Positions 46,144 through 63,957 of a stretch of DNA of 64,000 bases are shown here, piece by piece. Source of the stretch: Candidatus Marinacidobacterales bacterium (GTDB lineage: Bacteria > Acidobacteriota > Vicinamibacteria > Marinacidobacterales > DATDRI01); the NCBI GenBank assembly GCA_965226495.1, contig OZ245365.1, positions 2,016,001 through 2,080,000 on the forward strand. Reading direction: 5' to 3'. Numbering within the stretch: position 1 is the stretch's first letter; every line of letters starts with the position of its first letter. The notes beneath the pieces are model-generated. The model did not search any database and was not told the DNA's origin. It was given only the letters and a program-made list of their open reading frames with translations. The translations under genes and the position numbers were made by a program.

Positions 46144-46774
46144 ATGCTAGCACAAAAGAAGCAATTCCCGAAATGGGCCTGTCTTTTAGCCATCTTGGCA
46201 GCCATTTTCGCAGCAGCTTCGGTCCTCCCCGCGGGGCGAGCGGCCCCTGCGATCGGAGCCGCGGCGCCCAGGGTCATCGTCCTTGGGTTCGACGGGGCCG
46301 ATCCCGGCCTGGCGATCCGCTTCATGGAGGAAGGTCATCTGCCGAACCTCCAGAGACTCAGCCGGCAGGGGCAGTTTGCGCCCCTAGCCACCACCCGCCC
46401 CTCCGAGTCACCGGTCTCCTGGTCGTCCTTCGCGACCGGAATGAACCCCGGAAAAACAGGTATTTTCGACTTCCTCGCGCGGGTGCCGGCCCTATGTAGA
46501 CGATGCGTACGATATCGTTGTCGGGTTCAAGCCGGGGTATCGGGTGTCCTGGGAGACGACCTTGGGTGGTATTCCCCATGAGGTCATCACGAACAACCGC
46601 AACAACTGGAGCGGGGATCATTGTTCTTCCGACGCAAATATCACGGCGGGAGTTTTGTTTAGTAACCGCACGCTGAAACGAGAGAGTGCGCGCACTATCG
46701 ACATCGCGCCCACGGTTTTGGATCTCTTTGGCATTCTAGTGCCGGACGATATGGACGGCGAACCGTTGTTCTAG
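46144..46774 (+). pseudogene. Alkaline phosphatase-superfamily nucleotide pyrophosphatase/phosphodiesterase with a large internal deletion and frameshift
   Basis: N-terminal VIVLGFDGAD...PSESPVSWSSFATG.NPGK.GIFDF is joined near 46489, in another frame, to C-terminal PYVDDAYDIVVGF..GYR.SW...WSGDH...DIAPTVL.LFG...P.DMDG. Confidence 0.8.
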
Positions 46775-46782
46775 TTGTTGAA

Positions 46783-47421
46783 GTGACTAGTTACGCGCTC
46801 GTTTTTCGGAGGCTCGAGAAGGTCGGACTTCTTCTGCTTACGGATGTTGATTTGCCGAGCGTGGCCGGGCTGGTCGCCGGCGAGCCAGTTCGAGGCTCCT
46901 GGTGGGGACACGCGCGGGCGCAGGAGATCTTTAACGTGAGTGAGAAACTTGCCGAACATGTTGACGTAACCAGCGTCAAGTTCGTGAAGAACAAAGTGAC
47001 GTTCGTCCATCGTCGGCTCTGGCCCGCGCTCGTTGCGGTTGGTACTTCGCGCGCCTCTTGGCAGCTGGAACAGCTGTCTGGGGCTGCGCTCTCCTTTCTC
47101 GATCGGGTGGAGCGGGCTGGGCCGGTTCGGAGCGACGATGTAAAGGTTGCAGAGGCAGTTCGTGGTGGTTCGCGGAAGGTAAGTGAACTTATCCGCGATC
47201 TCGAGAAGCGACTCTTGTTACACAGCGAGCCGGTTCACACCGAGTCGGGCGCGCATGCCAAGTCTCTGGAGAGTTGGGGGCAGTGGGCTGCTAGGGTTAA
47301 CCTGGGCGGCACGACGACGAGCGCGAAGGAAGGCAAACGGGTATTGCAGAACGCGACTCGCGCGCTATGCGGCGGTTCCAGTGTGGCTCCAGGACTCCCA
47401 TGGATTTCGGAAGATGATTGA
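46783..47421 (+). CDS. Conserved hypothetical protein (possible winged-helix)
   Basis: LPSV...VAGEP..GSWWGH...KVT.VHRRLWPAL motif; coupled to the next gene. Confidence 0.65.
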   Translation: MTSYALVFRRLEKVGLLLLTDVDLPSVAGLVAGEPVRGSWWGHARAQEIFNVSEKLAEHVDVTSVKFVKNKVTFVHRRLWPALVAVGTSRASWQLEQLSGAALSFLDRVERAGPVRSDDVKVAEAVRGGSRKVSELIRDLEKRLLLHSEPVHTESGAHAKSLESWGQWAARVNLGGTTTSAKEGKRVLQNATRALCGGSSVAPGLPWISEDD

Positions 47422-48760
47422 AAGGTTAAGTCGCTTTTTCGGCGTTTCGGCGGCCGGTAGCTCGGTCCGAACCGAAATCCTAGCCGGTGTCAGCACCTAC
47501 ATGGCGCTGTCCTACATCGTCTTGGTCAATCCCGCCGTGCTCGCCGGTGCGGGAATGGACGCGGGGGCGGTGATGATGGCGACCTGCCTGGCCTCGGCAC
47601 TCGCAACGGCCTGGATGGCATTTCATGCCAACTATCCCATCGCCTTGGCACCGGGAATGGGGCACAACTTCTTCTTCGCCATCACGGTCTGCGGTCCCAT
47701 TGCGGCGGGCGGTCTCGGCTACAGTTGGCAGGTGGCTCTGGCCGCGGTGTTCGTATCAGGAAGCATCTTCCTCGTGGGCTCGTTCTGGGGGCTGCGGGCC
47801 CGCATCATCACCCTCGTGCCAGCGCACATGAAGACCAGCATTGCCGTTGGGATCGGGCTGCTCATTGCGGTCGTGGGTTTGCGATGGGGCGGCCTGTTGG
47901 TTGCTCGTCCGGGCATCTACATCGGTCTAGGGGAGCTCGGAGAGTCACCCGTCCTTTTGACTCTGTTCGGCCTGACGGTCATGTCGGTGTTGACCGCCGC
48001 CCGGGTTCCCGCCGCATTGGTCGTTGGGATTCTCGTGACCACGCTACTCGCGGCCTTGACCGGTTTGGCCAAGCTCCACGGAGTTGTGGCATGGCCGCCT
48101 TCGATCGCTCCGACTCTGTTCGCTCTCGATTTTAGGGGCCTCCTGCGCGAAGCAGATTTTGTTTCCGTCGTTTTCGTCTTTCTCTTCGTGGATATCTTCG
48201 ACACCGTCGGCACCTTGATCGGGGTGGGGCAAAGAGCCGGGCTCATCGTGAACGGTGAACTTCCTCGCGCCCGCCAGGCACTGACTGCAGACGCGGTGGG
48301 GACTGTCGCGGGATCGGTTTTGGGGACCTCGACGGTAACGAGCTATGTCGAGAGCGCGGCGGGAGTGGCCGCAGGAGGGAAGACGGGCTTCGCGGCACTG
48401 GTGACGGCGGTGCTCCTGGCGGGTTCGATTTTCTTCCATCCTCTCGTCGAGGTAGTCGGGGTGGGATTCGACGTTGGTGGGGGAGTCGTGCTCTACCCAA
48501 TTCTCGCGCCGGCGCTCATTCTGATCGGAGTCTTCATGATGCATGGGATCGGTGATATCGCTTGGAACGATCCCCGGCAGGCTATCCCCGCGTTTCTCAC
48601 CATAGTCATGATGCCTCTCACTACGAATATCACCGAGGGCATCTCGTTCGGGTTCATCTCTACTTCGGTGCTCTATTTGGCGAGTGGTAAGCGGAAGTCG
48701 CTACATTGGGGAGTGCATGTCATTGCCGCCTGCTTCCTGTTAAGGTATTTGCTGCTATGA
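47414..48760 (+). CDS. NCS2/AzgA-family purine (guanine/hypoxanthine/adenine) permease
   Basis: TEILAG..T...L.YI..VNP, P.ALAPGMG.N.FF, FDTVGTL, TSYVESAAG..AGG.TG, PAFLT...MPLT..I. Confidence 0.93.
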   Translation: MIERLSRFFGVSAAGSSVRTEILAGVSTYMALSYIVLVNPAVLAGAGMDAGAVMMATCLASALATAWMAFHANYPIALAPGMGHNFFFAITVCGPIAAGGLGYSWQVALAAVFVSGSIFLVGSFWGLRARIITLVPAHMKTSIAVGIGLLIAVVGLRWGGLLVARPGIYIGLGELGESPVLLTLFGLTVMSVLTAARVPAALVVGILVTTLLAALTGLAKLHGVVAWPPSIAPTLFALDFRGLLREADFVSVVFVFLFVDIFDTVGTLIGVGQRAGLIVNGELPRARQALTADAVGTVAGSVLGTSTVTSYVESAAGVAAGGKTGFAALVTAVLLAGSIFFHPLVEVVGVGFDVGGGVVLYPILAPALILIGVFMMHGIGDIAWNDPRQAIPAFLTIVMMPLTTNITEGISFGFISTSVLYLASGKRKSLHWGVHVIAACFLLRYLLL

Positions 48761-49800
48761 AGGCCAGGAAGAAACCGCGCTATTCAACCGGTCAGCCCGA
48801 GCTAGATGCAAAGCTCGAGGAGCTGGTGAGTTCCACGTGTCCCGGCCGCGAAAAGGAGTACGTCCTACAGATCGCCACCAGCGCCTTGAAGCTTGGCCTC
48901 GAGAAGGCCAAGCGCGGTGATCTCAAGATCGCGAATGCGGCGCTGAAGGAAATGCGCTCCGCATTCAAGATGTTCACGCCGTATCGACGGGTCCACAAGG
49001 TCACGGTGTTCGGCTCTGCCCGCACCGAGCCCGGTCAGCCGGACTACGAGCGCGCCGAAGAGCTCGGCCGTCGCATGGCGGAGGCGGGATGGATGGTCGT
49101 GACCGGCGCGGGCAGCGGCATCATGGGAGCGGCACACCGTGGAGCGGGGCGCGACATGAGTATCGGGGTCAACATCCGACTGCCCTTCGAACAGCAAGCC
49201 AACCGGACCATCCGTGGCGATCGAAAACTCCTCTCGTTCCGATACTTTTTCACCCGTAAACTCTTTCTGTTGAAGGAGTCCTCTGCGGTGGCATTATTTC
49301 CAGGGGGCTTCGGCACCCTCGACGAAACGTTCGAGGTTCTAACCCTATTGCAGACCGGCAAGCAAAGCCCCCTTCCGGTAGTCATGGTAGAAAGTCCGGA
49401 AACGGGTTACTTCCGCGCGCTAGAGCGTTTTATCGAGGAGCGAATGGTGTCGGGCGGACTCGTCTCCGAGGAGGACAGATCATTATTCAAGGTGGTGCCG
49501 AATCCGAAGGCGGCCTGCGAAGAGACTCTCCGCTTCTATCGTCTCTACCATTCGTCTCGCTACGTGGGAGGGAGACTGCTGATTCGGCTGCAGCGTGAGC
49601 TCAGCGGCAAGGAGCTCGACGATTTGAATCATTCCTTTGCTGACATTCTAAACTCGGGCGATATCGAAGTGGCTCCAATCTCGTCCGAAGAAGAGAAGGA
49701 CCCTCAGCTTGGGAAGCTCTCCCGTATTCAGCTCGACTTCAACCGCAGAAACTTCGGAAGGCTCCGCCAGCTCATCGATATGATTAACGGGTTTGATTAG
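48757..49800 (+). CDS. LOG family nucleotide monophosphate phosphoribohydrolase-like protein
   Basis: VFGSART, TGAGSGIM, YFFTRK, PGGFGTLDE. Confidence 0.9.
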   Translation: MKARKKPRYSTGQPELDAKLEELVSSTCPGREKEYVLQIATSALKLGLEKAKRGDLKIANAALKEMRSAFKMFTPYRRVHKVTVFGSARTEPGQPDYERAEELGRRMAEAGWMVVTGAGSGIMGAAHRGAGRDMSIGVNIRLPFEQQANRTIRGDRKLLSFRYFFTRKLFLLKESSAVALFPGGFGTLDETFEVLTLLQTGKQSPLPVVMVESPETGYFRALERFIEERMVSGGLVSEEDRSLFKVVPNPKAACEETLRFYRLYHSSRYVGGRLLIRLQRELSGKELDDLNHSFADILNSGDIEVAPISSEEEKDPQLGKLSRIQLDFNRRNFGRLRQLIDMINGFD

Positions 49801-49805
49801 ATGGT

Positions 49806-49880
49806 TGGCTTCCTTCCTTTAATCCCTCTCCCTCTGGGAGAGGGCCTGGGTGAGGGTGAACGCTGGCTTCCTTCCTTTAA
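49806..49880. repeat. 41-bp palindromic element flanked by 17-bp direct repeats
   Basis: tggcttccttcctttaa at 49806-49822 and 49864-49880 flank ccctctccc-tct-gggagaggg-cctgggtgaggg. Confidence 0.85.
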
Positions 49881-51712
49881 CGCGGAAACATCACCGTAAA
49901 ATCAGCATCCCGCTCCGCGACCTGTTCGGTGTTTTCGTCGGTGACGCGAGCGCGGAGAGAGTAGCTTCCCGGTGGAAGCGCCTTGAGCGACACGTCACTC
50001 TTCAGCGCAACGCCCGAGACCCTGGATGGCCGGTGATAGGAAGGGGCTACTTTCGAGAAGAGTCTCCCGTCCTTGAGAATGAAGAAGTCGACCCGCAGTC
50101 TCGCCTGATTGGTTATCGGGCCCACCGAGTAGCCGAGGGCTTGAACGTAGGCGGTCAGGCTCGAGGTCCGCTCGAAGCGGTGCAGGACGTTGGGTATCAA
50201 GCGCAAGTTCCCGAATTGGAAGGGAGGGCGCGGGGCTCCGGCGGGGAGTGGATCGGTTTCTACCGCAGCGCTTGCCAAAAGGAGGCTCGAGAGCGTGAGC
50301 CCCTCTCCGGTGAAGACCGGGACTTCTATCGTGGTCGAGGACCGACCCACTGCACCGCTGGGGTTGTCCCGAACCAGGGATTCTATCTGATAGGTACCGG
50401 GAGCCAGATTTAGGGATGCTTCGTAAAGCATCTGGCTGGATCGGTAGGCATCCAAGTCATTGGCTGGAAATTGGATTTCGATGCGGTCCTCGATCGGAGG
50501 TTGTTCGGTACCCGACTCGTCCCTCACCTGAACCAAGATGTCCGCTTCATAGCCATAGCCGGTCCCGTCCTCCGTCGGTCGAGGAGTCAGTCGCGCGTAA
50601 GGCATGGAGACCGTGATGGGCACCCAGGCCGAGCCTGTCTGCGAGGGGAAGAAAGCGGCGGTAGTGGTGAGCGGCACCGACGGAAAGTCGGCACGAGCCT
50701 CGGTGACCTCCCGGAGTGAAGGCAGGTTGAGCTCGGGCACTTTCGCCACTTCGAGGAGGTTCCGCTGGAAATCGAATTGATCCATGGACATCTGGTCGCC
50801 GAAGTATTGGTTCTGAGCGCCACTTATTGGATCCATGAGCGTACCGCCGTCGCGCATGAATCCGAGCGCGTCGAGCTCGCTCATGGCCCAAGCCTGGTTG
50901 GTGCGCAACGGCGCCAAAGCATCGATGTTGTCGGCGGAGACGATCTCGAATCGCCCCGTCGAGGTGAAATCGACGAAACCGATGTCGAAGGAGGCCGGCA
51001 GCCGAGGGTTCGGCGCGTTGTTGTAGGTCCATACCTCGGACGGCCGCTCAAAGGCGTTGCGCCCTGCCGGGGCCCTGTCGATCGTACTGGGCGCGCCGAG
51101 AATGATGTAGATCTTGCCGCGGTCGGTCGCCCAGCCGGGAATTCCAGCGCCGAAGTGTTGGACGGAGTGCGCGAACCGCCGCTGATGTTCCTGCCGGGGC
51201 TCGTTCTCGGGAGTCTCAGGTGTGGTATCGCGCCGGCGCCAGAAAGACTCCATAAACGCTAGCCTGTCGGAGGGTGTCTCCAAAGACTCGAAGCGCTCTC
51301 TCTCCTCTCGGGACACGATCCACTTGACGTACTGATTCACCCAACGATCGAAAAGCTTGTCCAGCTCTTCCACGTCCGGATAGGTGACGAAACTGAACGT
51401 ATCGCCAACCGCGAAGTCGTCGTTCCCGCTATTGATCCGGAAGGATACGCCGCTCTCGACCTCCTGGTAGAGGTTGCCCACGACCGTGGTGGGCGGAACC
51501 CCGTCTTCGCCGGAACGCTTCACGGAAAAGGAGATTGCGTCGGAGTCGGCGCTCACACACTGAACGGTATAGAATTCGAGCGGCACGTTCTCCGGAACGT
51601 CCACAATAGTGAGGGTTCCGTCTCCCAGGCCCTGCAATACGGGTCGGGTCGCGCGCTCAGTGACCTCGGGTCTGGCGGCCACCAATGCGAGTACGAGTAG
51701 CAAAGAGCTCAT
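49877..51712 (-). CDS. GWxTD domain-containing exported protein
   Basis: Signal peptide, FW.RRD..P.T..NE...EH.RR, GWATDRGKIYI..G.P. Confidence 0.9.
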   Translation of the reverse strand: MSSLLLVLALVAARPEVTERATRPVLQGLGDGTLTIVDVPENVPLEFYTVQCVSADSDAISFSVKRSGEDGVPPTTVVGNLYQEVESGVSFRINSGNDDFAVGDTFSFVTYPDVEELDKLFDRWVNQYVKWIVSREERERFESLETPSDRLAFMESFWRRRDTTPETPENEPRQEHQRRFAHSVQHFGAGIPGWATDRGKIYIILGAPSTIDRAPAGRNAFERPSEVWTYNNAPNPRLPASFDIGFVDFTSTGRFEIVSADNIDALAPLRTNQAWAMSELDALGFMRDGGTLMDPISGAQNQYFGDQMSMDQFDFQRNLLEVAKVPELNLPSLREVTEARADFPSVPLTTTAAFFPSQTGSAWVPITVSMPYARLTPRPTEDGTGYGYEADILVQVRDESGTEQPPIEDRIEIQFPANDLDAYRSSQMLYEASLNLAPGTYQIESLVRDNPSGAVGRSSTTIEVPVFTGEGLTLSSLLLASAAVETDPLPAGAPRPPFQFGNLRLIPNVLHRFERTSSLTAYVQALGYSVGPITNQARLRVDFFILKDGRLFSKVAPSYHRPSRVSGVALKSDVSLKALPPGSYSLRARVTDENTEQVAERDADFTVMFPR

Positions 51713-51741
51713 GACAGGGCCCATAACGAGGGAATTTTAGC

Positions 51742-53106
51742 ATGGTCCAATACTTGATGTTGTTGGCGTTGCTTCAGGCCGAGCCGGTCGATCGGTTGGT
51801 CCAGGGTGGCACGGTCGTGACTATGGATCGGGAGATGCGGGTTCTCGAAGGGGCGGCTGTTGCGATCCGCGGCGAGCGCATCGTGGCGGTCGTCGAGGCG
51901 GGTGATCCTCTTCCCGACGCCCGAGAAGTGGTAGATGCCGCGGGGCATCTCGTGATTCCCGGGCTGATAAACACCCATGGCCATGTGCCGATGATTTTGC
52001 TTCGTGGCCTGGCTGACGACATGGCGCTGATGGAATGGCTCAACGATTTCATCTTTCCCGCCGAGGCACGGAACGTGAACAAGGAGTTCGTCTATTGGGG
52101 AACTCTTCTCGGTGCGATCGAGATGGCTCGAGGCGGGACGACGACTTTCACCGACATGTATTACTTCGAAGACGAAATCGCACGAGCTACCGATCGATCG
52201 GGGCTGCGGGCGGTACTTGGTCAGACGATCATCGGTTTCCCCGCGCCGGATTACAAGACCACCGACGAAGCGTTAGCCGCCACCGAGGCCTTCGTTCGTG
52301 AATATCGAGACCACCCTAGGGTCACGCCCTCGGTGGCACCCCATGCGCTCTACACCACCGACATCGAAGTGATCATCAAGGCTCGGGAGATGGCGTGCCA
52401 ATACGATGTCCCGTTCCAGATTCACGCCCACGAGTCACCGGAGGAAGATACCGCGGTGAGAAAGAAGATGGGTATGACGACGGTATCCGTGCTAGATCGG
52501 GCAGGCGTGCTCGACTCGGGGGTGATCCTGCATCATGTGATCACACTGACCGACGAGGATATTCGACTCATTGCCCGCAGCGGTGCTACCACCTCTCATA
52601 ACCCGGAGTCCAACATGAAGGGGGCGTCGGGCCTCGCCCGGGCTCCGGATTTGCTGGCAGCGGGGATTCCGGTGGGACTCGGTACCGACGGCGCGGCGAG
52701 CAACAATAACTTGGACATGTTCGAGGAGATGGACACCGCGGCCAAAGTGCACAAGCTCAATCGACAGGACCCGACCGCCATGCCCGCTCGCGACGTGTTT
52801 CGGATGGCAACCATCGGCGCCGCGGAGGCATTGGGGCTTGCGGACGATGTGGGCTCGATCGAGGTAGGGAAGCTTGCTGATTTGGTGTTGATCGACCTCG
52901 ACAAGCCGGAGCTGACGCCTCTCTACGACGTTTACTCGCACTTGGTTTACGTCATCAAAGGGCCGTATGTGCGTTCGGTGCTTGTTGGAGGCGAGTGGAT
53001 AGTTCGGGACCATAAGGTGGTCACCATGGACGTGGAAGAAGTGTTGACCAAGGCGCGGCAGATTCAGGAGCGAATCCGAGCCAGCCTTGCCCGAGCGGAA
53101 AAATGA
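51742..53106 (+). CDS. Amidohydrolase, MTA/SAH deaminase (MtaD)-like
   Basis: PGLINTHGH, GTTTF.DMY, PHALYT, IHAHES, HNPESNMK, GLGTDGAASNN. Confidence 0.88.
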   Translation: MVQYLMLLALLQAEPVDRLVQGGTVVTMDREMRVLEGAAVAIRGERIVAVVEAGDPLPDAREVVDAAGHLVIPGLINTHGHVPMILLRGLADDMALMEWLNDFIFPAEARNVNKEFVYWGTLLGAIEMARGGTTTFTDMYYFEDEIARATDRSGLRAVLGQTIIGFPAPDYKTTDEALAATEAFVREYRDHPRVTPSVAPHALYTTDIEVIIKAREMACQYDVPFQIHAHESPEEDTAVRKKMGMTTVSVLDRAGVLDSGVILHHVITLTDEDIRLIARSGATTSHNPESNMKGASGLARAPDLLAAGIPVGLGTDGAASNNNLDMFEEMDTAAKVHKLNRQDPTAMPARDVFRMATIGAAEALGLADDVGSIEVGKLADLVLIDLDKPELTPLYDVYSHLVYVIKGPYVRSVLVGGEWIVRDHKVVTMDVEEVLTKARQIQERIRASLARAEK

Positions 53107-54620
53107 AGCGCCGACTCGAGATCGTCGGACTGGTCGTTGCCGTTGCGGCGGGTTCGGCCTGCAAAACCCGTGAGAGCTCATCGCCGACTCCAAGAGCCCG
53201 CAACGTCATTCTGTTCATCGGAGATGGACTAGGAGCGACCCAAATAGCGCTCGGACTCGAGTACGCCCGCGTCGTCGAAGGGCGTCAGCTTCATCTGGAG
53301 AAACTCATGGAATCCGGTGAGATCGGGTATGCACTCCCGGTTTCGCACCAGACCACGGTGATTGATTCCGCTGCCGCGGCTACTCAAATCGCGACCGGCC
53401 AGGTAGCTTGGAATCAGACACTCGGGATCGATATCGAGGGAAAGCCGATCGAGACGATACTCGAGCTATCCGAGAGCCGGGGGCTAGCAACGGGTCTGGT
53501 AACCAACATGCGACTGGTTCATGCAACCCCCGCCGCCTTCGCCTCACACCAACTGTCCCGCTATGACCCGGAACCAGAGATCGCCGATCAGATCCTAGCG
53601 GAGCACGAGATCGAAGTCCTTCTCGGTGGGGGAGCGCGGGCTTTCGTCCCGCAGGGACAGCGGACGTCCGAGAGCCTACCGGGAATTCCGGCCCGACTCG
53701 ACGGGCGTTCACGGCGCACCGACGATCGGGATCTCATCGCGGAAGCGCGCGAACGCGGCTACGCCGTCGTGAGCGAGCGCGAGGCGCTTCTCGACCATGC
53801 GTCCAAAAGGAAGAAGCTTCTGGGTCTATTCTCGGCCAGCAACCTGCCTTATGTCTTGGATCGTCGAAGTGAATCGTTGGACGGTGTTCCCAGCCTCGCG
53901 GAGCTAACCGAAGCCGCACTCCGAGTGCTTGGTGCGGAGGAAAAAGGGTTCTTCCTCATGGTCGAAGGAGGGCGCATCGACTATGCGGGCCACGACAACG
54001 ATGCCGGTGCGATGCTCCACGAGATTCTCGATTTCGATGAGGCGTTGGGTGTCGCGTCTCGTTTTCAATCGAAGAATCCCGATACCCTGCTTCTGGTGAC
54101 CGCCGACCACGGGACTGGAGGGTTCACTTTCACTTACTCTCGACACGCTGATTGGGAAAGACGTCCGGCGATTCCTCTGGCGAGTGGGGAAGTGTATCGC
54201 CCGCGTTATTTCTACCCCGGCAGGAACGAGTTGGAGCTCCTGGGGAAGCAATCGAGGTCGTATGAGTTGATCGGAGAGAGAGCCGGAACCGATCCCGCGA
54301 AGCTTCAAAAGGAGGTGCGAGATGCCACCGGTCTGGAGCTTACCTGGGAGGAGGCGACGAAGGCCGCGGCACGGAACACTGAGGGCAAACCTGAGGTCGG
54401 CGATTTTTCGCAGTTTTACACCGACGAGGAAGACACCGCACAGGCGTTGTTGGGACGGGCGCTATCTCGGCAGACGTCCATCAGCTGGTCGACCGGGGGG
54501 CACACCACCGATCCGGTCCTTGCCTTCGGTGTGGGTCCGGGCGCGCATAGGCTGCGGGGGGTGTATCGAAATACTCATATCCACGAAGTGATGGAGAAGA
54601 GCCTAAGCGGGATGCAATAA
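53103..54620 (+). CDS. Alkaline phosphatase (PhoA-type), lipoprotein
   Basis: Lipobox GSAC, NVILFIGDG, DSAAAAT active-site Ser, HATPAAF, MVEGGRID.AGH.ND, TADH. Confidence 0.93.
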   Translation: MKRRLEIVGLVVAVAAGSACKTRESSSPTPRARNVILFIGDGLGATQIALGLEYARVVEGRQLHLEKLMESGEIGYALPVSHQTTVIDSAAAATQIATGQVAWNQTLGIDIEGKPIETILELSESRGLATGLVTNMRLVHATPAAFASHQLSRYDPEPEIADQILAEHEIEVLLGGGARAFVPQGQRTSESLPGIPARLDGRSRRTDDRDLIAEARERGYAVVSEREALLDHASKRKKLLGLFSASNLPYVLDRRSESLDGVPSLAELTEAALRVLGAEEKGFFLMVEGGRIDYAGHDNDAGAMLHEILDFDEALGVASRFQSKNPDTLLLVTADHGTGGFTFTYSRHADWERRPAIPLASGEVYRPRYFYPGRNELELLGKQSRSYELIGERAGTDPAKLQKEVRDATGLELTWEEATKAAARNTEGKPEVGDFSQFYTDEEDTAQALLGRALSRQTSISWSTGGHTTDPVLAFGVGPGAHRLRGVYRNTHIHEVMEKSLSGMQ

Positions 54621-55636: not shown

Positions 55637-55640
55637 CCCT

Positions 55641-56369: not shown

Positions 56370-56997
56370 CGCTTTTCTCCCGTGGAGGTTTGCCCAAGAG
56401 CTCTCGTAGTTTCAGTCTGGCTTTGTGAACCAGAGACTTGGATGTGCCCTCCGCGACACCCAATATGTCCGCCACCTCGCGGTGGCCGAATCCCTCGACG
56501 TCGAACAGCAAGAAAGCCGCCCGGTAGGAATGGGGAAGTTGCACGATGGCGTTCTCTAGGTCGAGTCGGGCCGCCGTCGACTCGGGAGCAGCGGAGGGGG
56601 AGAATCCCGTCGACTCGTCCAGGCTTTTGGTCACCGATTGTCTCTGCGCAGCCCCACTTCTGAGATGGTCGAGGCAACGGTTGACTGCCAATCGATACAA
56701 CCAAGTCCCAAAGGCGGCCCGCCCTTCGTAGCTCGGTAGCTTGTTGTAAGCCAGTAAGAAGATCTCTTGAAGGAGATCCTCCGCTTCGGCGAGGTCTCGG
56801 ACCATGCGGAACGCCAGGTTGTACATGGCCGAACTGTGCCTTTGATAGATGGCCTCGAAAGCCTCCACGTCGCCGGATCGACACCTGGCGACCAGGGTTG
56901 CTTCTTCCGCTCGAGCCTGCTGCTTGGTAGTTGAGACAGAGGAAGGGCCTTGTGGAACGCCGGCCCCGTCCCTGACGTCTTGCATGGGCGCTAGCAT
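56362..56997 (-). CDS. ECF sigma-70 factor
   Basis: AEDLLQEIF, F.TWLYRLA.N, LP..YR..F.L...EG....EVA.ILG...GT.KS..HKAR. Confidence 0.93.
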   Translation of the reverse strand: MLAPMQDVRDGAGVPQGPSSVSTTKQQARAEEATLVARCRSGDVEAFEAIYQRHSSAMYNLAFRMVRDLAEAEDLLQEIFLLAYNKLPSYEGRAAFGTWLYRLAVNRCLDHLRSGAAQRQSVTKSLDESTGFSPSAAPESTAARLDLENAIVQLPHSYRAAFLLFDVEGFGHREVADILGVAEGTSKSLVHKARLKLRELLGKPPREKSGD

Positions 56998-57243: not shown

Positions 57244-58359
57244 ATGAAGTCGCTTTCACTGTTGCTTCTTATTAATGCGCTCACCGTCGGACCAAGCTTC
57301 GCAACCCAGCCTAGGATCAAGGTCATCGCCGATCAGGACAGCGCGGGGCCGGAGGGAACGAACTATCTCTCCCTGTTGATGCTCCTCCTGGCCCCCGAAA
57401 TCGATCTGCCGGGAATCACCACGGTGAGTGGCGACCAGTGGGTTAAGCAGGCGACGGTTTTTGCGCGCCACGCCGTTGAGCTTACTGGGCGGTCCGACGT
57501 GCCGGTGGTTCAGGGCGCCGAGATGCCGTTGCTCAATAGTGGAGGCGAGCAGGAGCGTCGCGAACGCCTGTTCGGGTCTTATGCAACATGGCATGGGGTG
57601 TTCAATCCCGATGCTCCTTCTCCCGATCGCATTTGGGAACCACCTGGTGGCTGGCCTGAGATGCCAGCTCGGTCAGGGCATGCGGTCGACTTCATCATCG
57701 AGACGATCCGCAAGAATCCAGGCGAGGTCGTGCTCTACTGCGCGGGACCTCTGACCAACGTCGCGCTCGCCGTTCGCTTGGACCCCGGCATCGTGCAACT
57801 CACCCGGTCCATCTACATCATGGGGGGAAGCAGCGGCGGAGGCCCGGAGCTCAATTGGTGGTGGGATCCCGAAGCGGCGGCCATCGTTTTGCGAGAGCCT
57901 TGGAAGGAAATCGTGGTGACGCCGTTCGAGACGGGAGGCCAAGCATGGTCCAGCCCAGACCTTATGCGGCCGATTGTCGCTTCCGGAGGTCGACTTGCCA
58001 GTCACGTGAGCTCGACGTACCTAGATTACAAGCCTCAGGATTCCAATACCGTGTGGGGGATGATGTGGGATGAAGTCACGGTCGCCTCTTTGCTCGACCC
58101 GACGGTGATTGGTAAGTGGGAGGAATTGTATCTCGACGTGGTGATCGACCATGGACCCACCTACGGTGAAACTCGCGTCTGGCGGAAGCCGCCAGCGGTC
58201 CTGAGTTTTTTCTTGGCCTACAGTGGGCCCGATCCGATGGACTCTGAGAGTTGGACAGAACATCATCGGTTACCCTACGGCCGCCGTCCTGCGCAGGTTC
58301 AGATGGAAGTCGATCTGGAGAAATTCAATTCGCTTTTCATAGAGGTCTTGTCACGATAG
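57244..58359 (+). CDS. Nucleoside hydrolase family protein, exported, with atypical metal motif
   Basis: Signal peptide (…PSFA), DQDSAGPEGTN, GPLTNVA, IMGG, N.WWDPEAA, MWDE. Confidence 0.88.
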   Translation: MKSLSLLLLINALTVGPSFATQPRIKVIADQDSAGPEGTNYLSLLMLLLAPEIDLPGITTVSGDQWVKQATVFARHAVELTGRSDVPVVQGAEMPLLNSGGEQERRERLFGSYATWHGVFNPDAPSPDRIWEPPGGWPEMPARSGHAVDFIIETIRKNPGEVVLYCAGPLTNVALAVRLDPGIVQLTRSIYIMGGSSGGGPELNWWWDPEAAAIVLREPWKEIVVTPFETGGQAWSSPDLMRPIVASGGRLASHVSSTYLDYKPQDSNTVWGMMWDEVTVASLLDPTVIGKWEELYLDVVIDHGPTYGETRVWRKPPAVLSFFLAYSGPDPMDSESWTEHHRLPYGRRPAQVQMEVDLEKFNSLFIEVLSR

Positions 58360-58380
58360 CTCTCTGCGAGGGGTTCGATC

Positions 58381-59400
58381 ATGAAGCCAAGTGTGGTGTT
58401 GATTGGTTTGTTGCTGGCAGCCGGCTGCGCTCGAGATCCCGGAGGCTCCGGCCGATGGGAGCTCTCAGAGTCGGCAGCCGGCGAGGTGGACGAGACCCTG
58501 GCGCGACAGATTTTTCTCGCGCTCGATGCAGCAGAGCAGGCAGGTACCGATCCGTCGATTTCTCACTACGATGTGCGTGCAGCGACGGTAGTGGAGGCCG
58601 AAGGGAGAGAGCACGTCGTGGTCGGGAGCAACACCGAGTACCAGGTTCCAGAGGCCATACATGGAGAGACTTCTCTTCTTAACCACGTGACGAGCCTGCT
58701 CGGGAAAGAGGCGACCCGGAGCGTTCGCTTCCTCGCTTTCTACTCCGATGGCAGGTGTGGGAGCGGCTCGAGCTGCGGTGACTGTCGAGATTACCAAATC
58801 GCGGTAACCGACTACCAGAACCTCTTGATCGCCTGTGGGCAGAGCTCAGATCGCACCGTACACATCAAGAAGTTCGCGGATGCGGTGGTTCCCGAAGAGA
58901 GTTTTCCAGCAGTCTCTGCCGACGGGATCCCTCTGAGCGAGGCGGTTTTAGAGCAGCTGGTGGGGGCGGCCATCGAAGCTCGCCAGGGTGGGATTACTCT
59001 CTTTACTTCTGGGGAACATCATGCCGGTGCCGCCGGAGTCTCGTCCAAGGGCAAGTTATACCGGGCGGCCGGTGCGGACGACGCGGCGTTTCATTACCGT
59101 TACCCGATTGGCGGGCTGCTTCAACAGGCGGCGGCGGAAAGCGACTACTTCATCGAAGCGATCGTCGTGGTAGGTGAGCCGGGTGAGTGGCCCCGCATCA
59201 GCTACCGCGACCGCCAGTACGGCTATGAGTCGAGCAGTTTCAATCTTCGGGAGGGCCTCGAGCCGATCCGCTTGATCCTGACCGACGGGGAGGGGAACTA
59301 CCGCATGACGACTTTCGAAGAGGCTTTGCCAGGGGCATTCAGCACCAGCGCCTTCATGCCCGATGCGGTGGGGGAGTTTTTGGAGAGCCACACTCGGTGA
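58381..59400 (+). CDS. Two-domain cytidine deaminase-like lipoprotein
   Basis: Lipobox LAAGC; G.N.E...HGE...SCGDCR zinc motif; second degenerate domain with G.LY....DDAAF. Confidence 0.8.
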   Translation: MKPSVVLIGLLLAAGCARDPGGSGRWELSESAAGEVDETLARQIFLALDAAEQAGTDPSISHYDVRAATVVEAEGREHVVVGSNTEYQVPEAIHGETSLLNHVTSLLGKEATRSVRFLAFYSDGRCGSGSSCGDCRDYQIAVTDYQNLLIACGQSSDRTVHIKKFADAVVPEESFPAVSADGIPLSEAVLEQLVGAAIEARQGGITLFTSGEHHAGAAGVSSKGKLYRAAGADDAAFHYRYPIGGLLQQAAAESDYFIEAIVVVGEPGEWPRISYRDRQYGYESSSFNLREGLEPIRLILTDGEGNYRMTTFEEALPGAFSTSAFMPDAVGEFLESHTR

Positions 59401-59404
59401 AAGT

Positions 59405-59434: not shown

Positions 59435-59437
59435 GAG

Positions 59438-60832
59438 CGGTTAGTCCCGAAACGATGCACGGGCGCGGTGGAACGCGCAAAAAAAGTCATTTTCTTGTTT
59501 TTTTACTTGACAATTTTCGAAGGTCTTTTAAAGCGAAGTTGTTGACACGATCGTGGACGCGCGTGTGGCGCCCTGAAATAGAGGAGGAAGGCGTGATCCG
59601 CGTCGCGAGCTTCGAACGTCATCGCAGGTCGTATTGATTTAACACCGGCCATCCCAGGACCTCGAAAAACCCCGCGCTATATTAGGAGCATGACACACGA
59701 GTTCCAACTGAAATCGATTTCAGATGATGAGCTACTCCGTCGGTTGTCGGAACTCACGCAACAGTCCCGACGCGTCGAGTCCGAGTTGGTCGCTCACATC
59801 GGCGAAGTGGACGAACGTCGACTGTATGCGCGCGAAGCTTTCTCTTCGATGTTTTCCTATTGCACCGAAAAGTTGCACTTGTCGGAGCACGAGGCTTACC
59901 TGCGCATCGCAGTGGGGCGCGCGTCTCGTACGCACCCCATGCTTCTCGAGATGCTCGGTGATGGGCAACTTCACTTGAGCGGCATCGCCAAGATCGCACC
60001 GCACCTCACCGAGGCCAATCGAGAGACGCTTTTGGCTCGTGCGGCGCACAAGTCCAAGCGGAAGATTGAGGAGCTGGTGGCCGAGATTTCACCCAAGCCT
60101 GATGTTCAGGCGACGATACGCAAACTGCCCGAGCGTCCCGAGAAAACAGAACGGACCCCAGCCCCCCAACTCGGTCCGGAACGAGTTGCTATGCCTTCCC
60201 CGGCTCCCGCTCCGGCCAAGCTCGCGGTGGTGGAGCCTCTTGCACCCGCGCGCTATAAAGTGCAGTTCACCGCCAGCTCCGAGCTTCACGATAAGCTGGC
60301 GCGACTCCGGGTGCTCATGCGCTCCTCGGTACCCGACGGTGATCTGGCTGCGATCATAGAAGAGGCCGTGACCGAGAAGCTCGAGCGGCTAGAGTCGAAG
60401 CGGCTTGCCAAGACCAAGTCCGCAAGAAAGAGTCTTGAAGAAACCGACACGTCGCCCTCATCGCGCTACATCCCGGCCGCGGTGAAACGCGCCGTGCGGG
60501 AGCGGGACGGGAACCAATGCACGTTTGTGGACGCAAACGGTAGACGCTGTAGGGAGCGCCACGGCCTCGAGTTCCACCACCACCAGCCCTTTGGCCGTGG
60601 CGGCGACCACAGCCCGGAGAACCTGCGGATGATGTGCCCCGCGCACAACCGGTATCTGGCCGAGCGCGACTACGGAAGAGAGGTGATGAGGCGATACCGG
60701 CGCTCAGGCGACCATGCACGCGAGCCCGCGCCTGTTTACTTCCTCGGCAACCGGCTCTCGAACGCGACGAGTGGGGCCCGTCGCGACAGGAGCGGCGGCA
60801 GCACGACGTGGTCTAGGGCGAAATACGGTTAG
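59438..60832 (+). mobile_element. Putative HNH-encoding selfish element with possible CGGTTAG target duplication
   Basis: cggttag at 59438-59444 and 60826-60832; the gene interrupts a nucleoside-catabolism cluster. Confidence 0.4.
59690..60832 (+). CDS. DUF222-like N-terminal domain plus C-terminal HNH endonuclease
   Basis: SDDELL..L..L....R..E.ELVAHI.EVD.RRLY...SSMF.YC...L.LSE; R.IP..V.R.V..RD...C...C...LEFHH..P...GG....NL...C..HN. Confidence 0.88.
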   Translation: MTHEFQLKSISDDELLRRLSELTQQSRRVESELVAHIGEVDERRLYAREAFSSMFSYCTEKLHLSEHEAYLRIAVGRASRTHPMLLEMLGDGQLHLSGIAKIAPHLTEANRETLLARAAHKSKRKIEELVAEISPKPDVQATIRKLPERPEKTERTPAPQLGPERVAMPSPAPAPAKLAVVEPLAPARYKVQFTASSELHDKLARLRVLMRSSVPDGDLAAIIEEAVTEKLERLESKRLAKTKSARKSLEETDTSPSSRYIPAAVKRAVRERDGNQCTFVDANGRRCRERHGLEFHHHQPFGRGGDHSPENLRMMCPAHNRYLAERDYGREVMRRYRRSGDHAREPAPVYFLGNRLSNATSGARRDRSGGSTTWSRAKYG

Positions 60833-61767
60833 CCCTTGTCCCTCTTCTTCCACTCCTTGTTGAAGCGGGTTCGCTTGAGGAAAGACTTCTGGGTGCCGAC
60901 ACCCATCGTGGAGAGACCGGCGTAGAGATTGGCGCGGGCCAAGGCGTCCCGTTCCGGCATGCCTTCGGCGAGGAAGACCGCGAAGCTTCCAATGAACGCA
61001 TCGCCGGCCCCGGTAGTGTCTTTGGTTGTTACCTTGTAAGACGGGATGAGCTCCATGCCCTCCGAGCCCGCGAGCAAAGCTCCTTTTTCGCCGAGGGTGA
61101 TGATCACTCGACGAATCCCCTGTGCGAGAAGGTACTCGGCGCATGCCTTCGCTTGATCAACGGTCGTAACCGGCTTCCCGGTGATGGCGGCAGCCTCGGT
61201 CTCGTTGGGAACGAAGTAGTCGACGTTGGCCAACTGCTTCAGATCCGCGGGGAGCGCCGGGGCCGGATTCACGATACAGCGGATCTTGTTCTTCCGGGCG
61301 AATCGAACCGTGTGGTAGACGGTGTCGAGGGGAATCTCGAACTGCAAGATGATGATGTCGGCGCGTTTCAGTCGGGACGCTGCTTGATTGACTCCCTTGG
61401 CAGTCAGCTTGTCGTTGGCGCCCTTTACCACGATGATTCGATTCTGGCCGCTCTTCTCGACGAAGATGGGAGCCACACCACTCGAAACTCCCTTGACGGT
61501 TTGGACGTTGCGGGCCCCGATACCGAGGGACTTGAAGTTCTTGATGGTGGCCGGCCCGAAAAGGTCGTCTCCCACTCGTGCGACCATTTGCACCTTGGCG
61601 CCGCAGTACTTCGCCGCGACCGCCTGGTTCGCCCCTTTACCCCCGAAGCCGAGGTCGAAGGCTTCTCCGAAGACGGTCTCTCCCGGTTTGGGGAATTGAT
61701 CGGTGAAGCTGGTGAGGTCGACATTGGCACTTCCTACTACTGCGATTCGCGCTTGTCTTTTAGCCAT
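60829..61767 (-). CDS. rbsK: Ribokinase
   Basis: VVGS.N.DL, GGKGANQAVAA, VGDDLFG, PNETEA, DTTGAGDAF. Confidence 0.95.
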   Translation of the reverse strand: MAKRQARIAVVGSANVDLTSFTDQFPKPGETVFGEAFDLGFGGKGANQAVAAKYCGAKVQMVARVGDDLFGPATIKNFKSLGIGARNVQTVKGVSSGVAPIFVEKSGQNRIIVVKGANDKLTAKGVNQAASRLKRADIIILQFEIPLDTVYHTVRFARKNKIRCIVNPAPALPADLKQLANVDYFVPNETEAAAITGKPVTTVDQAKACAEYLLAQGIRRVIITLGEKGALLAGSEGMELIPSYKVTTKDTTGAGDAFIGSFAVFLAEGMPERDALARANLYAGLSTMGVGTQKSFLKRTRFNKEWKKRDKG

Positions 61768-61790
61768 TTGTTTGCTGGGCCTCCGGCCCT

Positions 61791-62852
61791 CTAATCCGAT
61801 TGCGGCGAGGGCCGTGTCATCAAGTCCACGAAGAGCTTCTCGAAACGCTCGCGATCGATGTCGGTCTGGACTTTCCACGTTCGTCCGGCCCACCAAGGGC
61901 GATTCTTCTTGGTCCACCACACGGTCTTTCCGTAATCCGGTCCCCAGGCGAATTCGCAATCAACATAGAGCTCTTCCTTCTTGGTAATGACCTTGGGGTC
62001 GATGATGGAAGCCGCTGAGAGCTCGTCCCACATGTAGGAGAAGATACCTTCGTCTACGTTGGGTCCTAGATACGATTCCTTCATGTAGTTGGCGAGCGGG
62101 GTGTTCGCCGTGGCGATGCGCTCGATCAGCTCTTTCGTCATCTGGGTCTTGTGGCACACGTCAATGGGAGTAAGCTCCATGTCTTTCCACGGCGCGCGAA
62201 GGTGCATCGCGGCCGCCTCGGCATCCCACCAAAAATTGAACATGTGGTTCACGTGGGTTGCCCCACCCATCGTGTAGACGGCTTTGATCTTGCCGATGAT
62301 ATCCGGCGCGATCCGGATCGCCAAAGCGATATTGGTGAGCGGACCGGCGGTGTAGAGCACGAGCTCGCCCGGGTACTTCCGTGCCATCTCGATGAGCAGC
62401 TCCGCGGCGTGTTTATCCACCGGTTTGATGGTCGGGGGGCCGCCCGGGGCAGGAGGGATGGTCGTCTTCGGTGCGACCTCTGGGCCCCATGCACCGTGCC
62501 ATCCATCGCCTTCCTTCGGTCCCCAAAGGGCCTCGCGACGGTTCATCGCCCCCTCGCTATTAATAAGCGGATCTTCCGAGCCGGCCGCCACCGGAACGTC
62601 GGGCTGGCCGCAAACTTCTACAATCTTGAGCGTGTGATAGACGGCTTGATCGAGCCAGGCGTCACCACCAACGACGCCGATCCCCACGACCTCGATGTTA
62701 GGAGCCATGAGCAGCATGGCGATGGACACCACGTCGGTCCCGCCGGGACCGGAAGTGTCCTGGTCGATGAAGACCTTGATGCGCTCTTGTCCGGAAGAGG
62801 AGCTGGCGAGCAGGAAGACAGCAAGAGAAACGGCGACTGATACACGATGCAT
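61791..62852 (-). CDS. Nucleoside hydrolase family protein, exported
   Basis: Signal peptide, DQDTSGPGGTD, GPLTNIA, MGG, FNFWWDAEAA, MWDE. Confidence 0.9.
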   Translation of the reverse strand: MHRVSVAVSLAVFLLASSSSGQERIKVFIDQDTSGPGGTDVVSIAMLLMAPNIEVVGIGVVGGDAWLDQAVYHTLKIVEVCGQPDVPVAAGSEDPLINSEGAMNRREALWGPKEGDGWHGAWGPEVAPKTTIPPAPGGPPTIKPVDKHAAELLIEMARKYPGELVLYTAGPLTNIALAIRIAPDIIGKIKAVYTMGGATHVNHMFNFWWDAEAAAMHLRAPWKDMELTPIDVCHKTQMTKELIERIATANTPLANYMKESYLGPNVDEGIFSYMWDELSAASIIDPKVITKKEELYVDCEFAWGPDYGKTVWWTKKNRPWWAGRTWKVQTDIDRERFEKLFVDLMTRPSPQSD

Positions 62853-62871
62853 AAGCTCCTCCTCGTCGAGC

Positions 62872-63957
62872 CTATGGTTTCCGCGGTGGTGCGGATAGGC
62901 GCTCTATGAACGTAGCCACGAACCGGTCACCGTCCACGACGGTCGGCACGTCGGCGTTCGGCTCCACCTTGGGGAAATTCGTAACCTCGTAATGGTCTCC
63001 CACGTCCTCGATGCCTTCCAGGAGCAAGTAGCGGTTGGCGACCGTCTCCCCATAGGTCAGGTCTCCTTTGGTTTCCACATCGATGAGCATGGATTTCATC
63101 TCAGTGGCGTAGGTCTTGTCGAAGGCCATGCCTACTGCCAGTGGATCGTGAAGATCGGCGCCCTCGAAGCCAAGCCTTTCCGAGAAACCGATGTAGAAGT
63201 CGTTGATGTCGGCTACGAACTTGCCAATCGCCGAGCCGGAGTTGGCGAGAGCAGGGAGGTGCCGGCGGTACAACTTGGTCTGTGATGTGGCTCCGAGACC
63301 TACCATGGTGATAGGGATACCGGAGTTGAAGACAATCTTCGCGGCCTCGGGATCATTGTAGATGTTGGCTTCGGCCGCCGGGCTCGCGTTGCCCCCGACG
63401 GTCGAGCCTCCCATCAGTATGATCTCGGGAACCTTCTCCCGCAGGGTGGGATCCTGCAGCAGTGCGAGCGCGATGTTGGTCAGCGGGCCCACCGGGACCA
63501 AGGTGATAACCCCGGGATTCGCGTTCACGATATCGATGATCACTTCCACGGCGTGGCGGGGGTCCAGCTTCTTGGTAGGAGCGGGGAGCTCGACGTCTCC
63601 CAAGCCGTTGGCCCCGTGAATCGATTCCGCGGTGATGAGCTTCCGCTGTAGAGGATACTTGGCGCCCTTCGCCACGATGATGTCGGGCCGCTCCGCCAAC
63701 TCGACGAGCTTGAGGGCGTTCACCGCGCCCTTGTCCACGATCACGTTTCCCGACACGACGGTGATGGCTTCGATCTGAAGCTCCGGTGACTGCGTTGCCA
63801 GCAAGACCGCCATGGCATCGTCGATACCGGGATCGATATCTAGGATGATGCGCCGTGGGTTCTGGGCGGTGGGGTTCTGCGCCGCGATGACCGCCTGGTT
63901 GTCGGCGACGATTCCGGCGGCGAGTAGCGCGGAGAAAAGGACTGGTAGTCGTTGCAT
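62872..63957 (-). CDS. Nucleoside hydrolase (canonical RihA/IU-NH-like), exported
   Basis: Signal peptide, DIDPGIDD, GPLTNIA, AEANIYNDPEAA, LHDP. Confidence 0.93.
   Translation of the reverse strand: MQRLPVLFSALLAAGIVADNQAVIAAQNPTAQNPRRIILDIDPGIDDAMAVLLATQSPELQIEAITVVSGNVIVDKGAVNALKLVELAERPDIIVAKGAKYPLQRKLITAESIHGANGLGDVELPAPTKKLDPRHAVEVIIDIVNANPGVITLVPVGPLTNIALALLQDPTLREKVPEIILMGGSTVGGNASPAAEANIYNDPEAAKIVFNSGIPITMVGLGATSQTKLYRRHLPALANSGSAIGKFVADINDFYIGFSERLGFEGADLHDPLAVGMAFDKTYATEMKSMLIDVETKGDLTYGETVANRYLLLEGIEDVGDHYEVTNFPKVEPNADVPTVVDGDRFVATFIERLSAPPRKP

Follow-up and report, generated by a model that had tools for sequence, protein, structure and literature searches.

Clustered signal-bearing nucleoside hydrolases, a permease and a ribokinase as a candidate periplasmic nucleoside- and ribose-scavenging locus of Acidobacteriota

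Two described systems come closest to the locus reported here, which begins near the 3' end of a 64,000-nucleotide stretch of a Candidatus Marinacidobacterales genome (G000:C1:2016001-2080000, hereafter the window; the host genome G000 comprises 6.34 Mb in a single contig) and continues beyond it. In Pseudomonas aeruginosa, the available part of the report describes Nuh as a periplasmic purine nucleoside hydrolase (NH), unlike its cytoplasmic Escherichia coli homologues, and as a single quorum-sensing-controlled enzyme whose periplasmic site may compensate for missing nucleoside transporters (PMC5437708). In Bacteroides thetaiotaomicron, the portion of the report at hand places RusNH in the periplasm by experiment and its gene beside two ribokinases, SusC/D homologues and a sugar permease; the same text assigns Ca2+ and ribose binding to the motif DXDXXXDD, with the third Asp binding ribose, and states that rus-like loci differ in their enzymes, which include NHs and ADP-ribosylglycohydrolases (10.1101/574913). 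The original prediction for this DNA, made from the letters alone, had started from the cytoplasmic E. coli enzymes RihABC and Cdd, a premise that is incomplete in view of what these two sources, as far as available, say of periplasmic NHs, and in view of the host's own cytoplasmic route. In a 2023 review of ribonucleoside hydrolases (PMC10526354) the words periplasm, extracellular and secreted are absent from the main text, and for this reason we regard exported NHs as under-recognised.

We consider the locus to be, with moderate confidence, the acidobacterial counterpart of such a ribose- and nucleoside-scavenging locus working in the periplasm. This reading builds on features that we observed directly, namely gene content, operon layout, synteny, signal-like N-termini, and a deaminase-like zinc-ligand/Glu motif and fold. 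In the route that we infer, in which export, all substrates, the order of the steps, the role of the receptor and the cargo of the permease are deduced from sequence, nucleosides, or nucleotides dephosphorylated for example by the neighbouring PhoA-type lipoprotein, would reach the periplasm, possibly through a divergently encoded TonB-dependent receptor. There, an exported cytidine deaminase-like (CDA-like) lipoprotein would turn cytidine into uridine, and an exported MtaD-like amidohydrolase would convert adenosine-type into inosine-type nucleosides, a step that seems clear in relatives and doubtful here. Four exported hydrolases of the IU family would cleave the ribosides to base and ribose, the operon-encoded DMT permease would import the product, most likely ribose, and cytoplasmic RbsK would finally yield ribose 5-phosphate.

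The core of the locus is a single minus-strand run of NH_D, permease, NH_C, NH_B and RbsK with gaps of 76, 15, 19 and 23 bp and RbsK in last place, an arrangement predicted from the sequence to be one operon; RbsK passes the ribokinase equivalog criterion (the curated cut-off of TIGR02152). Because four of the seven PF01156 matches of the genome lie within 9 kb at this locus, and because the arrangement recurs in other genomes, the clustering of the hydrolases goes beyond chance. The original prediction had proposed dephosphorylation, deamination and hydrolysis outside the cytoplasm, followed by RbsK, across about 18 kb; the core of this proposal agrees with the conserved synteny of signal-bearing NHs, permease and RbsK, whereas the 18-kb span does not hold up as one system. 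The real unit is smaller and consists of the NH_D-to-RbsK operon, the convergent pair of NH_A and the CDA-like gene, and the receptor operon. When six-frame open reading frames of the window were scanned against Pfam and NCBIfam, all genes that the prediction had listed within about 18 kb were recovered at or near the positions it gave, and past base 64000, where it had suggested looking for a transporter and a TonB-dependent receptor, there are indeed a DMT permease and a divergent receptor gene, plus NH_D. The features of the region, in window numbering, are these:

46123-46581, plus strand: N-terminal remnant of a PF01663 phosphodiesterase, 152 aa, profile positions 1-70 of 342
46783-47421: AlkZ-related gene (PF24741)
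~47414-48760, plus strand: NCS2 permease (PF00860, 1e-30)
48757-49800, plus strand: LOG-family protein (TIGR00730, 111 bits vs cut-off 96)
49877-51724, minus strand: GWxTD protein (TIGR04514)
51742-53106, plus strand: MtaD/TRZ-ATZ-type amidohydrolase, putative nucleoside deaminase (PF01979, 1.5e-74)
53103-54620, plus strand: PhoA-type alkaline phosphatase, probable lipoprotein (PF00245, 3.7e-85)
54674-56997, minus strand: DUF4097, anti-sigma and ECF sigma operon (Pfam and NCBIfam)
57244-58359, plus strand: NH_A, signal-bearing DQD-type NH-family protein (PF01156, 1.7e-52, 179 bits)
58381-59400, plus strand: CDA-like lipoprotein, modelled cytidine-deaminase fold, two domains (no Pfam match)
59690-60832, plus strand: HNH-domain gene (weak PF01844 match)
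60829-61767, minus strand: ribokinase RbsK (TIGR02152 equivalog, 337.2 bits vs cut-off 299.65)
61791-62852, minus strand: NH_B, signal-bearing DQD-type NH-family protein (PF01156, 8.9e-57, 193 bits)
62872-63957, minus strand: NH_C, signal-bearing canonical IU-NH with the motif DIDPGIDD (PF01156, 6.3e-90, 302 bits)
63973-64950 (G000:2079973-2080950), minus strand: DMT-superfamily permease, 325 aa (PF07168 3.8e-24, PF06800 3.7e-5); the 3' end of the gene, 63973-64000, is inside the window
65027-66103, minus strand: NH_D, fourth signal-bearing NH (PF01156, 2e-69, 235 bits)
66300-69254, plus strand: TonB-dependent receptor (PF13620 and PF25183)

All four hydrolases exceed the PF01156 gathering cut-off (34.2 bits) and none attains any NCBIfam equivalog cut-off; NH_C is nearest to RihA-type models, below their cut-offs, and both NH_C and NH_D score well against the RihA, RihC and UriH models. 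A hydrophobic N-terminal extension precedes the first β-strand and its Asp motif in 6/6 full-length NH copies of the genome. In NH_B and NH_C, no ATG, GTG or TTG follows the hydrophobic segment before the catalytic Asp motif is reached, and these two proteins cannot start downstream of the extension, an outcome that the original prediction had named as one that would refute it. Each of them has one possible start, that of NH_B preceded by GAGGAGGAG and that of NH_C upstream of the motif. For NH_A we place the start at ATG 57244, after a GGGAGGG stretch, and not at TTG 57019, and here as in NH_D the sole alternative starts fall within the hydrophobic segment and are TTG or GTG codons (in NH_A, a TTG). 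A home-made heuristic that looks for a positive n-region, a hydrophobic h-region, and a small-residue cleavage site, lipobox Cys or twin-arginine motif was positive for NH_A to NH_F, among them the three NHs for which signal-like N-termini had been claimed, as well as for the CDA-like protein, PhoA, the phosphodiesterase remnant, DUF4097 and the receptor, and negative for RbsK, LOG, the sigma factor, HNH and the AIRS-like protein. In relatives, the N-termini of the orthologues are hydrophobic and variable in sequence (NH_A 4/4, NH_B 5/5, NH_D 8/8, close NH_C 4/4), and a distant NH subfamily, 37-41% identical to NH_C, begins a few residues before the motif in 8/8 cases.

Judged by these N-termini, the hydrolases are likely exported. 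It might be argued instead that there is no extracytoplasmic pathway, that the hydrophobic N-termini do not act as signals and that the clustering reflects ordinary cytoplasmic nucleoside catabolism, given that export is deduced from N-terminal sequence features and that the MtaD-like N-terminus of this genome is short and uncharged. We attach hardly any weight to this view, because the extensions stay hydrophobic across orthologues while their sequence varies, cytoplasmic-type NH paralogues start just 3-7 residues before the motif, one NH paralogue carries a twin-arginine motif, and the CDA-like protein has a lipobox Cys kept in close relatives and a hydrophobic N-terminus in 24/24 aligned homologues. 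The paralogue with the twin-arginine (Tat-type) N-terminus is unlinked to the locus and surrounded by unrelated genes (G000:C1:6087289-6088368, equal to L101:7289-8368), and a second unlinked signal-bearing NH lies at G000:2148670-2149746. Near these two copies, NH_E and NH_F, we found no transporter or kinase among the unrelated genes that surround both; an adenosine deaminase gene is located about 5 kb from NH_F, with unrelated genes in between.

The arrangement is conserved well beyond the host. The permease is present in 18/40 relatives (6/7 in family f1, 12/17 in f2 and 0/16 in f3), a count that includes G007, flagged as unpublished, and a 23-residue fragment in G034. We compared the neighbourhoods of 15 relatives, leaving out these two genomes and G006, whose contig is too short: the permease adjoins an NH gene in 15/15 and RbsK is in the locus in 13/15, the exceptions being L005 and L006, the latter of which ends at a contig edge. 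A receptor gene together with a TPR gene is divergent from the operon in four of the 15, the CDA-like and the MtaD-like gene each occur in three, and the remaining flanking genes vary between genomes. A wider scan found at least 594 permease relatives, and the best 80 of their loci come from Acidobacteriota (Vicinamibacteria, Terriglobia, Acidiferrales and others) and one Longimicrobiales, with 4/80 coming from genomes that also belong to the relatives or to the CDA-like sample. An NH occurs within 10 kb of the permease in 59/80 loci, a PfkB kinase in 57/80, either of them in 73/80 and both in 43/80; an NH or kinase lies within 300 bp in 62/80. Among less regular companions within 10 kb are FG-GAP/ASPIC genes (19/80), MtaD-like genes (4/80) and CDA-like genes (2/80). 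The genes are thus co-located in related and in distant Acidobacteriota; a complete lack of co-location in related genomes is what the original prediction had named as refuting it.

In Terriglobia-type loci (L024, L027, L035, L052, L059, L063, L081 and others), a receptor gene is followed by a DQD-type NH, sometimes a TPR gene, in many cases another DQD-type NH, in most a PfkB kinase 26-28% identical to RbsK, and the permease, with FG-GAP/ASPIC genes downstream. This looks like a distinct version of the module.

The hydrolases themselves fall into recognisable types. Across the loci, one subfamily has the canonical motif DTDPGxDDA (36 copies) and takes in NH_C (DIDPGIDD) and, with a 2-residue insertion, the near-canonical NH_D (DTDLGFASDD); a second has DQDxxGPxxTD (38 copies) and takes in NH_A and NH_B; and a third, most of whose members have no signal, has DTDTASDDA (12 copies). 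The DQD type has Thr in place of the third Asp of DXDXXXDD and contains a 3-residue insertion. The NH_A motif, ADQDSAGPEGTN, is of this type and reads DQDSAGPEGTN, so that the fourth Asp is also changed, to Asn; that of NH_B reads DQDTSGPGGTD. No solved structure is close to NH_B, the best PDB sequence match being a canonical enzyme at E = 1.6e-24. The subfamily with this non-canonical motif looks new from its sequence, and its members may act on ribosides other than the common nucleosides.

These properties bear on a wider possibility, that the locus harvests ribose or another furanose from other ribosylated compounds, such as ADP-ribose or NAD derivatives, modified nucleosides or ribosylated polymers, with NH_A and NH_B specialised for them, much as has been proposed for the Rus loci of Bacteroidetes with their diversified enzymes. 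Consistent with this, the DQD motif replaces the Asp described as ribose-binding and is remote from any solved enzyme, an ADP-ribosylglycohydrolase is encoded 2.7 kb downstream of the receptor gene, and in Terriglobia the DQD-type NHs adjoin the receptor and a distinct PfkB kinase; moreover, the available text on the rus loci reports ADP-ribosylglycohydrolases to be common in rus-like loci and RusNH to be a weak nucleosidase (10.1101/574913). We nevertheless regard this explanation as unlikely. NH_C and NH_D have canonical and near-canonical motifs and resemble the Rih and UriH models as described above, the deaminase folds encoded alongside suggest cytidine- and adenosine-type substrates, and the ADP-ribosylglycohydrolase gene is syntenic within this genus only, with a probable internal ATG start that leaves no signal.

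The partner of NH_A in the convergent pair is the CDA-like lipoprotein, whose N-terminus contains the lipobox LLAAGC. It has no Pfam match, PF00383 being absent even at E <= 10, and it scores 24.6 bits against TIGR01354, below the cut-off of 113.65. With phmmer against PDB sequences, its second half (residues 192-323) aligned weakly to Bacillus subtilis cytidine deaminase. H94, E96, C126, C132 and C135 are invariant in the 24 aligned homologues, some of which also have a lipobox Cys; the C-terminal domain has no zinc ligands, yet is highly conserved. The AlphaFold2 model (mean pLDDT 83), compared with the PDB by Foldseek, had cytidine deaminases first among the matches listed (1ux1, E = 1e-8, target TM 0.84) and blasticidin S deaminases next, and its matches to the two-domain enzymes 4eg2, 6k63 and 1ctt were longer, with poor global superposition (TM ~0.25-0.3). 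As modelled, the protein has a cytidine-deaminase fold with H/C-x-E and C-x-x-C as its predicted zinc and catalytic residues. The family numbers at least 525 homologous clusters, no precomputed Pfam domain being recorded on the 120 listed; some clusters are named cytidine deaminase by one source, and Atlas look-alike clusters, mostly from Acidobacteriota, are labelled 'hypothetical protein'. A putatively exported two-domain cytidine-deaminase family of this kind, without a Pfam match, looks new as far as sequence can tell.

The CDA-like gene is rare (4/200 sampled genomes of the phylum) and closely tied to the module: an NH gene is found no more than 3.5 kb from it in 8/8 genomes in which it occurs, and in 7/8 it is clustered with the permease and RbsK. 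These eight genomes, namely the four from the phylum sample plus G000, G001, G002 and G028, represent at least six families and are not independent; by our own arithmetic, a random gene would fall within 3.5 kb of an NH with a chance of ~1%, given ~7 NH genes per 6 Mb. In L100, permease, NH, RbsK, NH_A and CDA-like genes form a single-strand run, with a signal-bearing MtaD-like gene divergent from it. The CDA-like orthologue of G001 (L003:13931-14947) has an in-frame stop two codons past the lipobox Cys, and the NH_A, NH_D, AIRS-like and ECF sigma genes each align in two pieces in G001 or G002, which suggests frameshifts or assembly errors.

The second putative deaminase belongs, by its PF01979 match, to the amidohydrolase superfamily and stays below all NCBIfam equivalog cut-offs (best NF006549, 446 vs 540; the MtaD model NF012037, 272 vs 779). 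Orthologues adjoin the module in G001, G003 and G028, and homologues of 38-47% identity are found near it in L061, L067, L079 and L100. As to the short hydrophobic N-terminus that had been noted for this protein, the co-located homologues of L010, L061, L067, L079 and L100 have clear signal-like N-termini, whereas the protein of this genome offers just a short uncharged stretch, which makes its export here doubtful. The gene is an accessory member and recurs with the module less often; putatively exported MtaD-like deaminases look new on the strength of these N-termini. The GWxTD and MtaD-like genes are divergent with 17 bp between their start codons, a pairing kept in G001, G003 and G028.

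On its other side, the MtaD-like gene shares 4 bp with the start of the PhoA gene, whose product has a lipobox-like Cys at residue 20 after a hydrophobic stretch. PhoA adjoins the MtaD-like gene only in G001 (L003/L017), the G002 copy being cut at the end of its locus, and the linkage is restricted to this genus. Upstream, the NCS2 stop overlaps the LOG start (48757-48760), which suggests translational coupling; the LOG/PpnN-like protein has a 95-residue N-terminal extension. Among the relatives' neighbourhoods, this pair is syntenic in G003 alone, and it forms an independent cytoplasmic purine pair that is not conserved along with the module. The phosphodiesterase, which had been described as deleted, is indeed a truncated remnant and was rejected as a working part; in all, 54 PF01663 matches are spread over several dozen long open frames of the genome, and other, better-scoring ones lie in frames of 494-888 aa. 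That the entire 18-kb stretch, including phosphodiesterase, NCS2, LOG and PhoA, acts as one scavenging system is very improbable in our estimation. All of these genes do touch nucleotide or purine metabolism, NCS2-LOG-GWxTD-MtaD synteny in G003 leads straight into RbsK, and the MtaD-like and PhoA genes overlap; G003, however, is in the same family, so that its synteny may be simple inheritance, LOG has no signal, the phosphodiesterase is one remnant among many matches, and within 10 kb of the permease NCS2 is found in 2/80, PhoA in 1/80 and LOG in 0/80 loci.

As had been noted at the outset, GWxTD, ECF and HNH genes are interspersed. The HNH gene, which also has a weak IscB-like match, is missing at this position from G001 and G002; there, the CDA-like gene and RbsK adjoin each other in convergent orientation. 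Because of this absence we take the HNH gene to be an insertion splitting the locus and not a member of the system. In G028, a similar gap next to the permease contains a MazE/PIN pair and a Uma2 gene. Over its first 46 kb, the window carries housekeeping genes, namely LysS, BamA, Skp, LpxA/LpxI, MiaA and fatty-acid synthesis genes, together with Asd, LysC, DapB, MutY, LeuS, LptE and HolA. Beside MiaA, at 18985-20169, is a gene for a 394-aa protein of the Metalloenzyme superfamily (PF01676), which may be a phosphopentomutase or a cofactor-independent phosphoglycerate mutase.

At the opposite end of the operon, a 196-bp gap separates NH_D from the receptor gene and contains back-to-back promoter-like sites, the one upstream of the receptor gene matching at 11/12 positions. 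In the promoter and terminator scans the overall site counts were not above shuffled expectation, and the position of this divergent pair alone suggests something of note. Downstream of the receptor gene follow TPR, AIRS-like, ADP-ribosylglycohydrolase and FG-GAP/ASPIC genes, and no SusD-family match was found among these scanned flanking proteins.

The cargo of the permease is the least certain step of the proposed route. The protein is only remotely related to the RhaT/GlcU family. We favour ribose with moderate confidence; a nucleoside is an unlikely cargo, and a nucleobase or another compound is less likely again. An alternative built on these latter cargoes holds that intact nucleosides or nucleobases are imported, that the main task of the exported NHs and deaminases is to supply bases and ammonia for nitrogen or purine salvage, and that recovering ribose is secondary. 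It gains from the far better match to the ureide permease family PF07168 than to a sugar-transport family, from several relatives in which a cytoplasmic NH and RbsK accompany the permease in what would be a self-sufficient trio for import, cleavage and phosphorylation, and from the argument, in the available part of the Nuh report, that the enzyme serves mainly adenine as a nitrogen source (PMC5437708). We find it quite improbable, considering that a PfkB kinase lies within 300 bp of the permease in 29/80 loci and that here the permease shares its operon with RbsK, that in Atlas look-alike clusters PF07168 is found together with the sugar-transporter families PF06800 and PF06379, and that NupC would already serve nucleosides.

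NupC belongs to a canonical nucleoside salvage cluster at G000:C1:2007675-2012269 (L103), 3.7-8.3 kb upstream of the window. On one strand, this cluster encodes a pyrimidine-nucleoside phosphorylase, a NupC-family transporter, a PNP/UDP-family phosphorylase and a canonical tetrameric-type Cdd; Upp (uracil phosphoribosyltransferase) is divergent and another phosphoribosyltransferase gene is nearby. A TPR, FG-GAP/ASPIC and TonB trio stands just upstream of it. Two copies of adenosine deaminase (Add) are present elsewhere in the genome, and NupG (PF03825) was not found in the genome, which is 94.8% complete. We therefore rejected the idea, taken from P. aeruginosa, that the periplasmic route substitutes for missing nucleoside uptake, NupC, two phosphorylase types, Cdd, Upp and the two Add copies all being present. 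Since the genome has this NupC-phosphorylase-Cdd route, the periplasmic locus would be an additional one.

Several points weigh against a periplasmic nucleoside- and ribose-scavenging function and have to be set beside the evidence above. The existing cytoplasmic route is one of them, and the weak nucleosidase activity that the available text reports for RusNH (10.1101/574913) is another. The canonical DXDXXXDD motif is absent from NH_A and NH_B. The MtaD-like protein of this genome has 13 uncharged residues before the conserved core, with a stop codon just upstream, and was ambiguous by the signal heuristic. For the NH N-termini near the 80 permease loci (n=90), 75 were signal-like, 7 short, 4 extended and non-hydrophobic and 4 unclassified, counts obtained by picking the most hydrophobic possible start and thus leaning towards signal calls; among those called signal-like by this procedure are at least two copies of the cytoplasmic type (DTDTASDD). 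The permease finds its top Pfam family in the ureide permeases and not in a sugar-transporter family. In G012, G016 and G018, among others, the NH that accompanies RbsK and an orthologous permease (63-74% identical) has no signal, a combination that would fit a nucleoside importer equally well; NupC is present in 5/5 tested genomes with this pairing and does not discriminate between the cargoes. A TonB-dependent receptor accompanies the module within 10 kb in just 15/80 loci. Finally, related genomes are not independent samples.

Taken together, the locus is real and conserved, and periplasmic nucleoside breakdown in it would follow an already known strategy. A broader reading, which we offer tentatively and hold to be somewhat less than evenly probable, is that many Acidobacteriota run a complete periplasmic deaminate-then-hydrolyse pathway, in which exported two-domain cytidine deaminases and MtaD-like enzymes would feed NHs that prefer inosine and uridine, DQD-type NHs would take other ribosides, and uptake would proceed via a TonB receptor and a DMT ribose permease, the whole being a SusD-less system, similar to a polysaccharide utilization locus (PUL), for nucleic-acid carbon and nitrogen in soil. 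Nucleic acids from dead cells are a pool of soil carbon, nitrogen and phosphorus, and Acidobacteriota are common in soil and poorly studied in their physiology. If the scavenging function is true, periplasmic nucleoside breakdown would be widespread in Acidobacteriota and marked by a gene signature that can be recognised (at least 594 permease relatives), a Pfam-less protein family of at least 525 clusters would have a testable function, and an NH subfamily with an altered sugar-binding motif would be defined. The CDA-like family, the putatively exported MtaD-like enzymes and the DQD-type NHs appear to us to be the three components that merit bench work. The literature searched yielded no work on acidobacterial NH loci, nor on comparable cytidine or adenosine deaminases exported by bacteria; 'secreted cytidine deaminase' led only to work on fish AID/APOBEC, and ureide permease with ribose and ribokinase only to work on plants.

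Compared with the systems that are known, the locus most resembles the Bacteroides rus PUL (BT2802-09) as described in the available text (10.1101/574913), with which it shares a TonB-dependent receptor, one or more periplasmic NHs (by inference here), an inner-membrane permease, a ribokinase and variable accessory enzymes, including an ADP-ribosylglycohydrolase nearby, as in many rus-like loci. It differs from the PUL, so far as that text goes, in belonging to another phylum, in having no SusD-like partner, RusR-type regulator or surface glycoside hydrolase among its flanking genes, in its four NHs as opposed to one and its one ribokinase as opposed to two, and in the addition of predicted exported deaminase-fold proteins; PF07168 matches in the B. 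thetaiotaomicron control genome give merely a hint of kinship between the permease and RusT. P. aeruginosa Nuh, from what the available part of its report says (PMC5437708), is likewise a periplasmic IU-family hydrolase yielding base and ribose, whose products are imported and whose ribose passes to ribokinase, whereas the present genome has NupC, four clustered NHs, a permease and RbsK in one operon, and predicted exported deaminases. All four hydrolases share the PF01156 fold with E. coli RihA, RihB and RihC and with Crithidia fasciculata-type IU-NHs, and NH_C shares their canonical motif; in contrast to those enzymes, all four have signal-like N-termini, NH_A and NH_B have DQDxxGPxxTD and NH_D has its 2-residue insertion. 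Like the E. coli-type dimeric Cdd (1ctt, 4eg2, 6k63), the CDA-like protein would combine two tandem folds with H-x-E and C-x-x-C only in the N-terminal one, and, unlike it, is predicted to be exported as a lipoprotein or by a signal peptide, has no Pfam match, carries a very conserved C-terminal domain, and occurs in a host that has a separate canonical Cdd.

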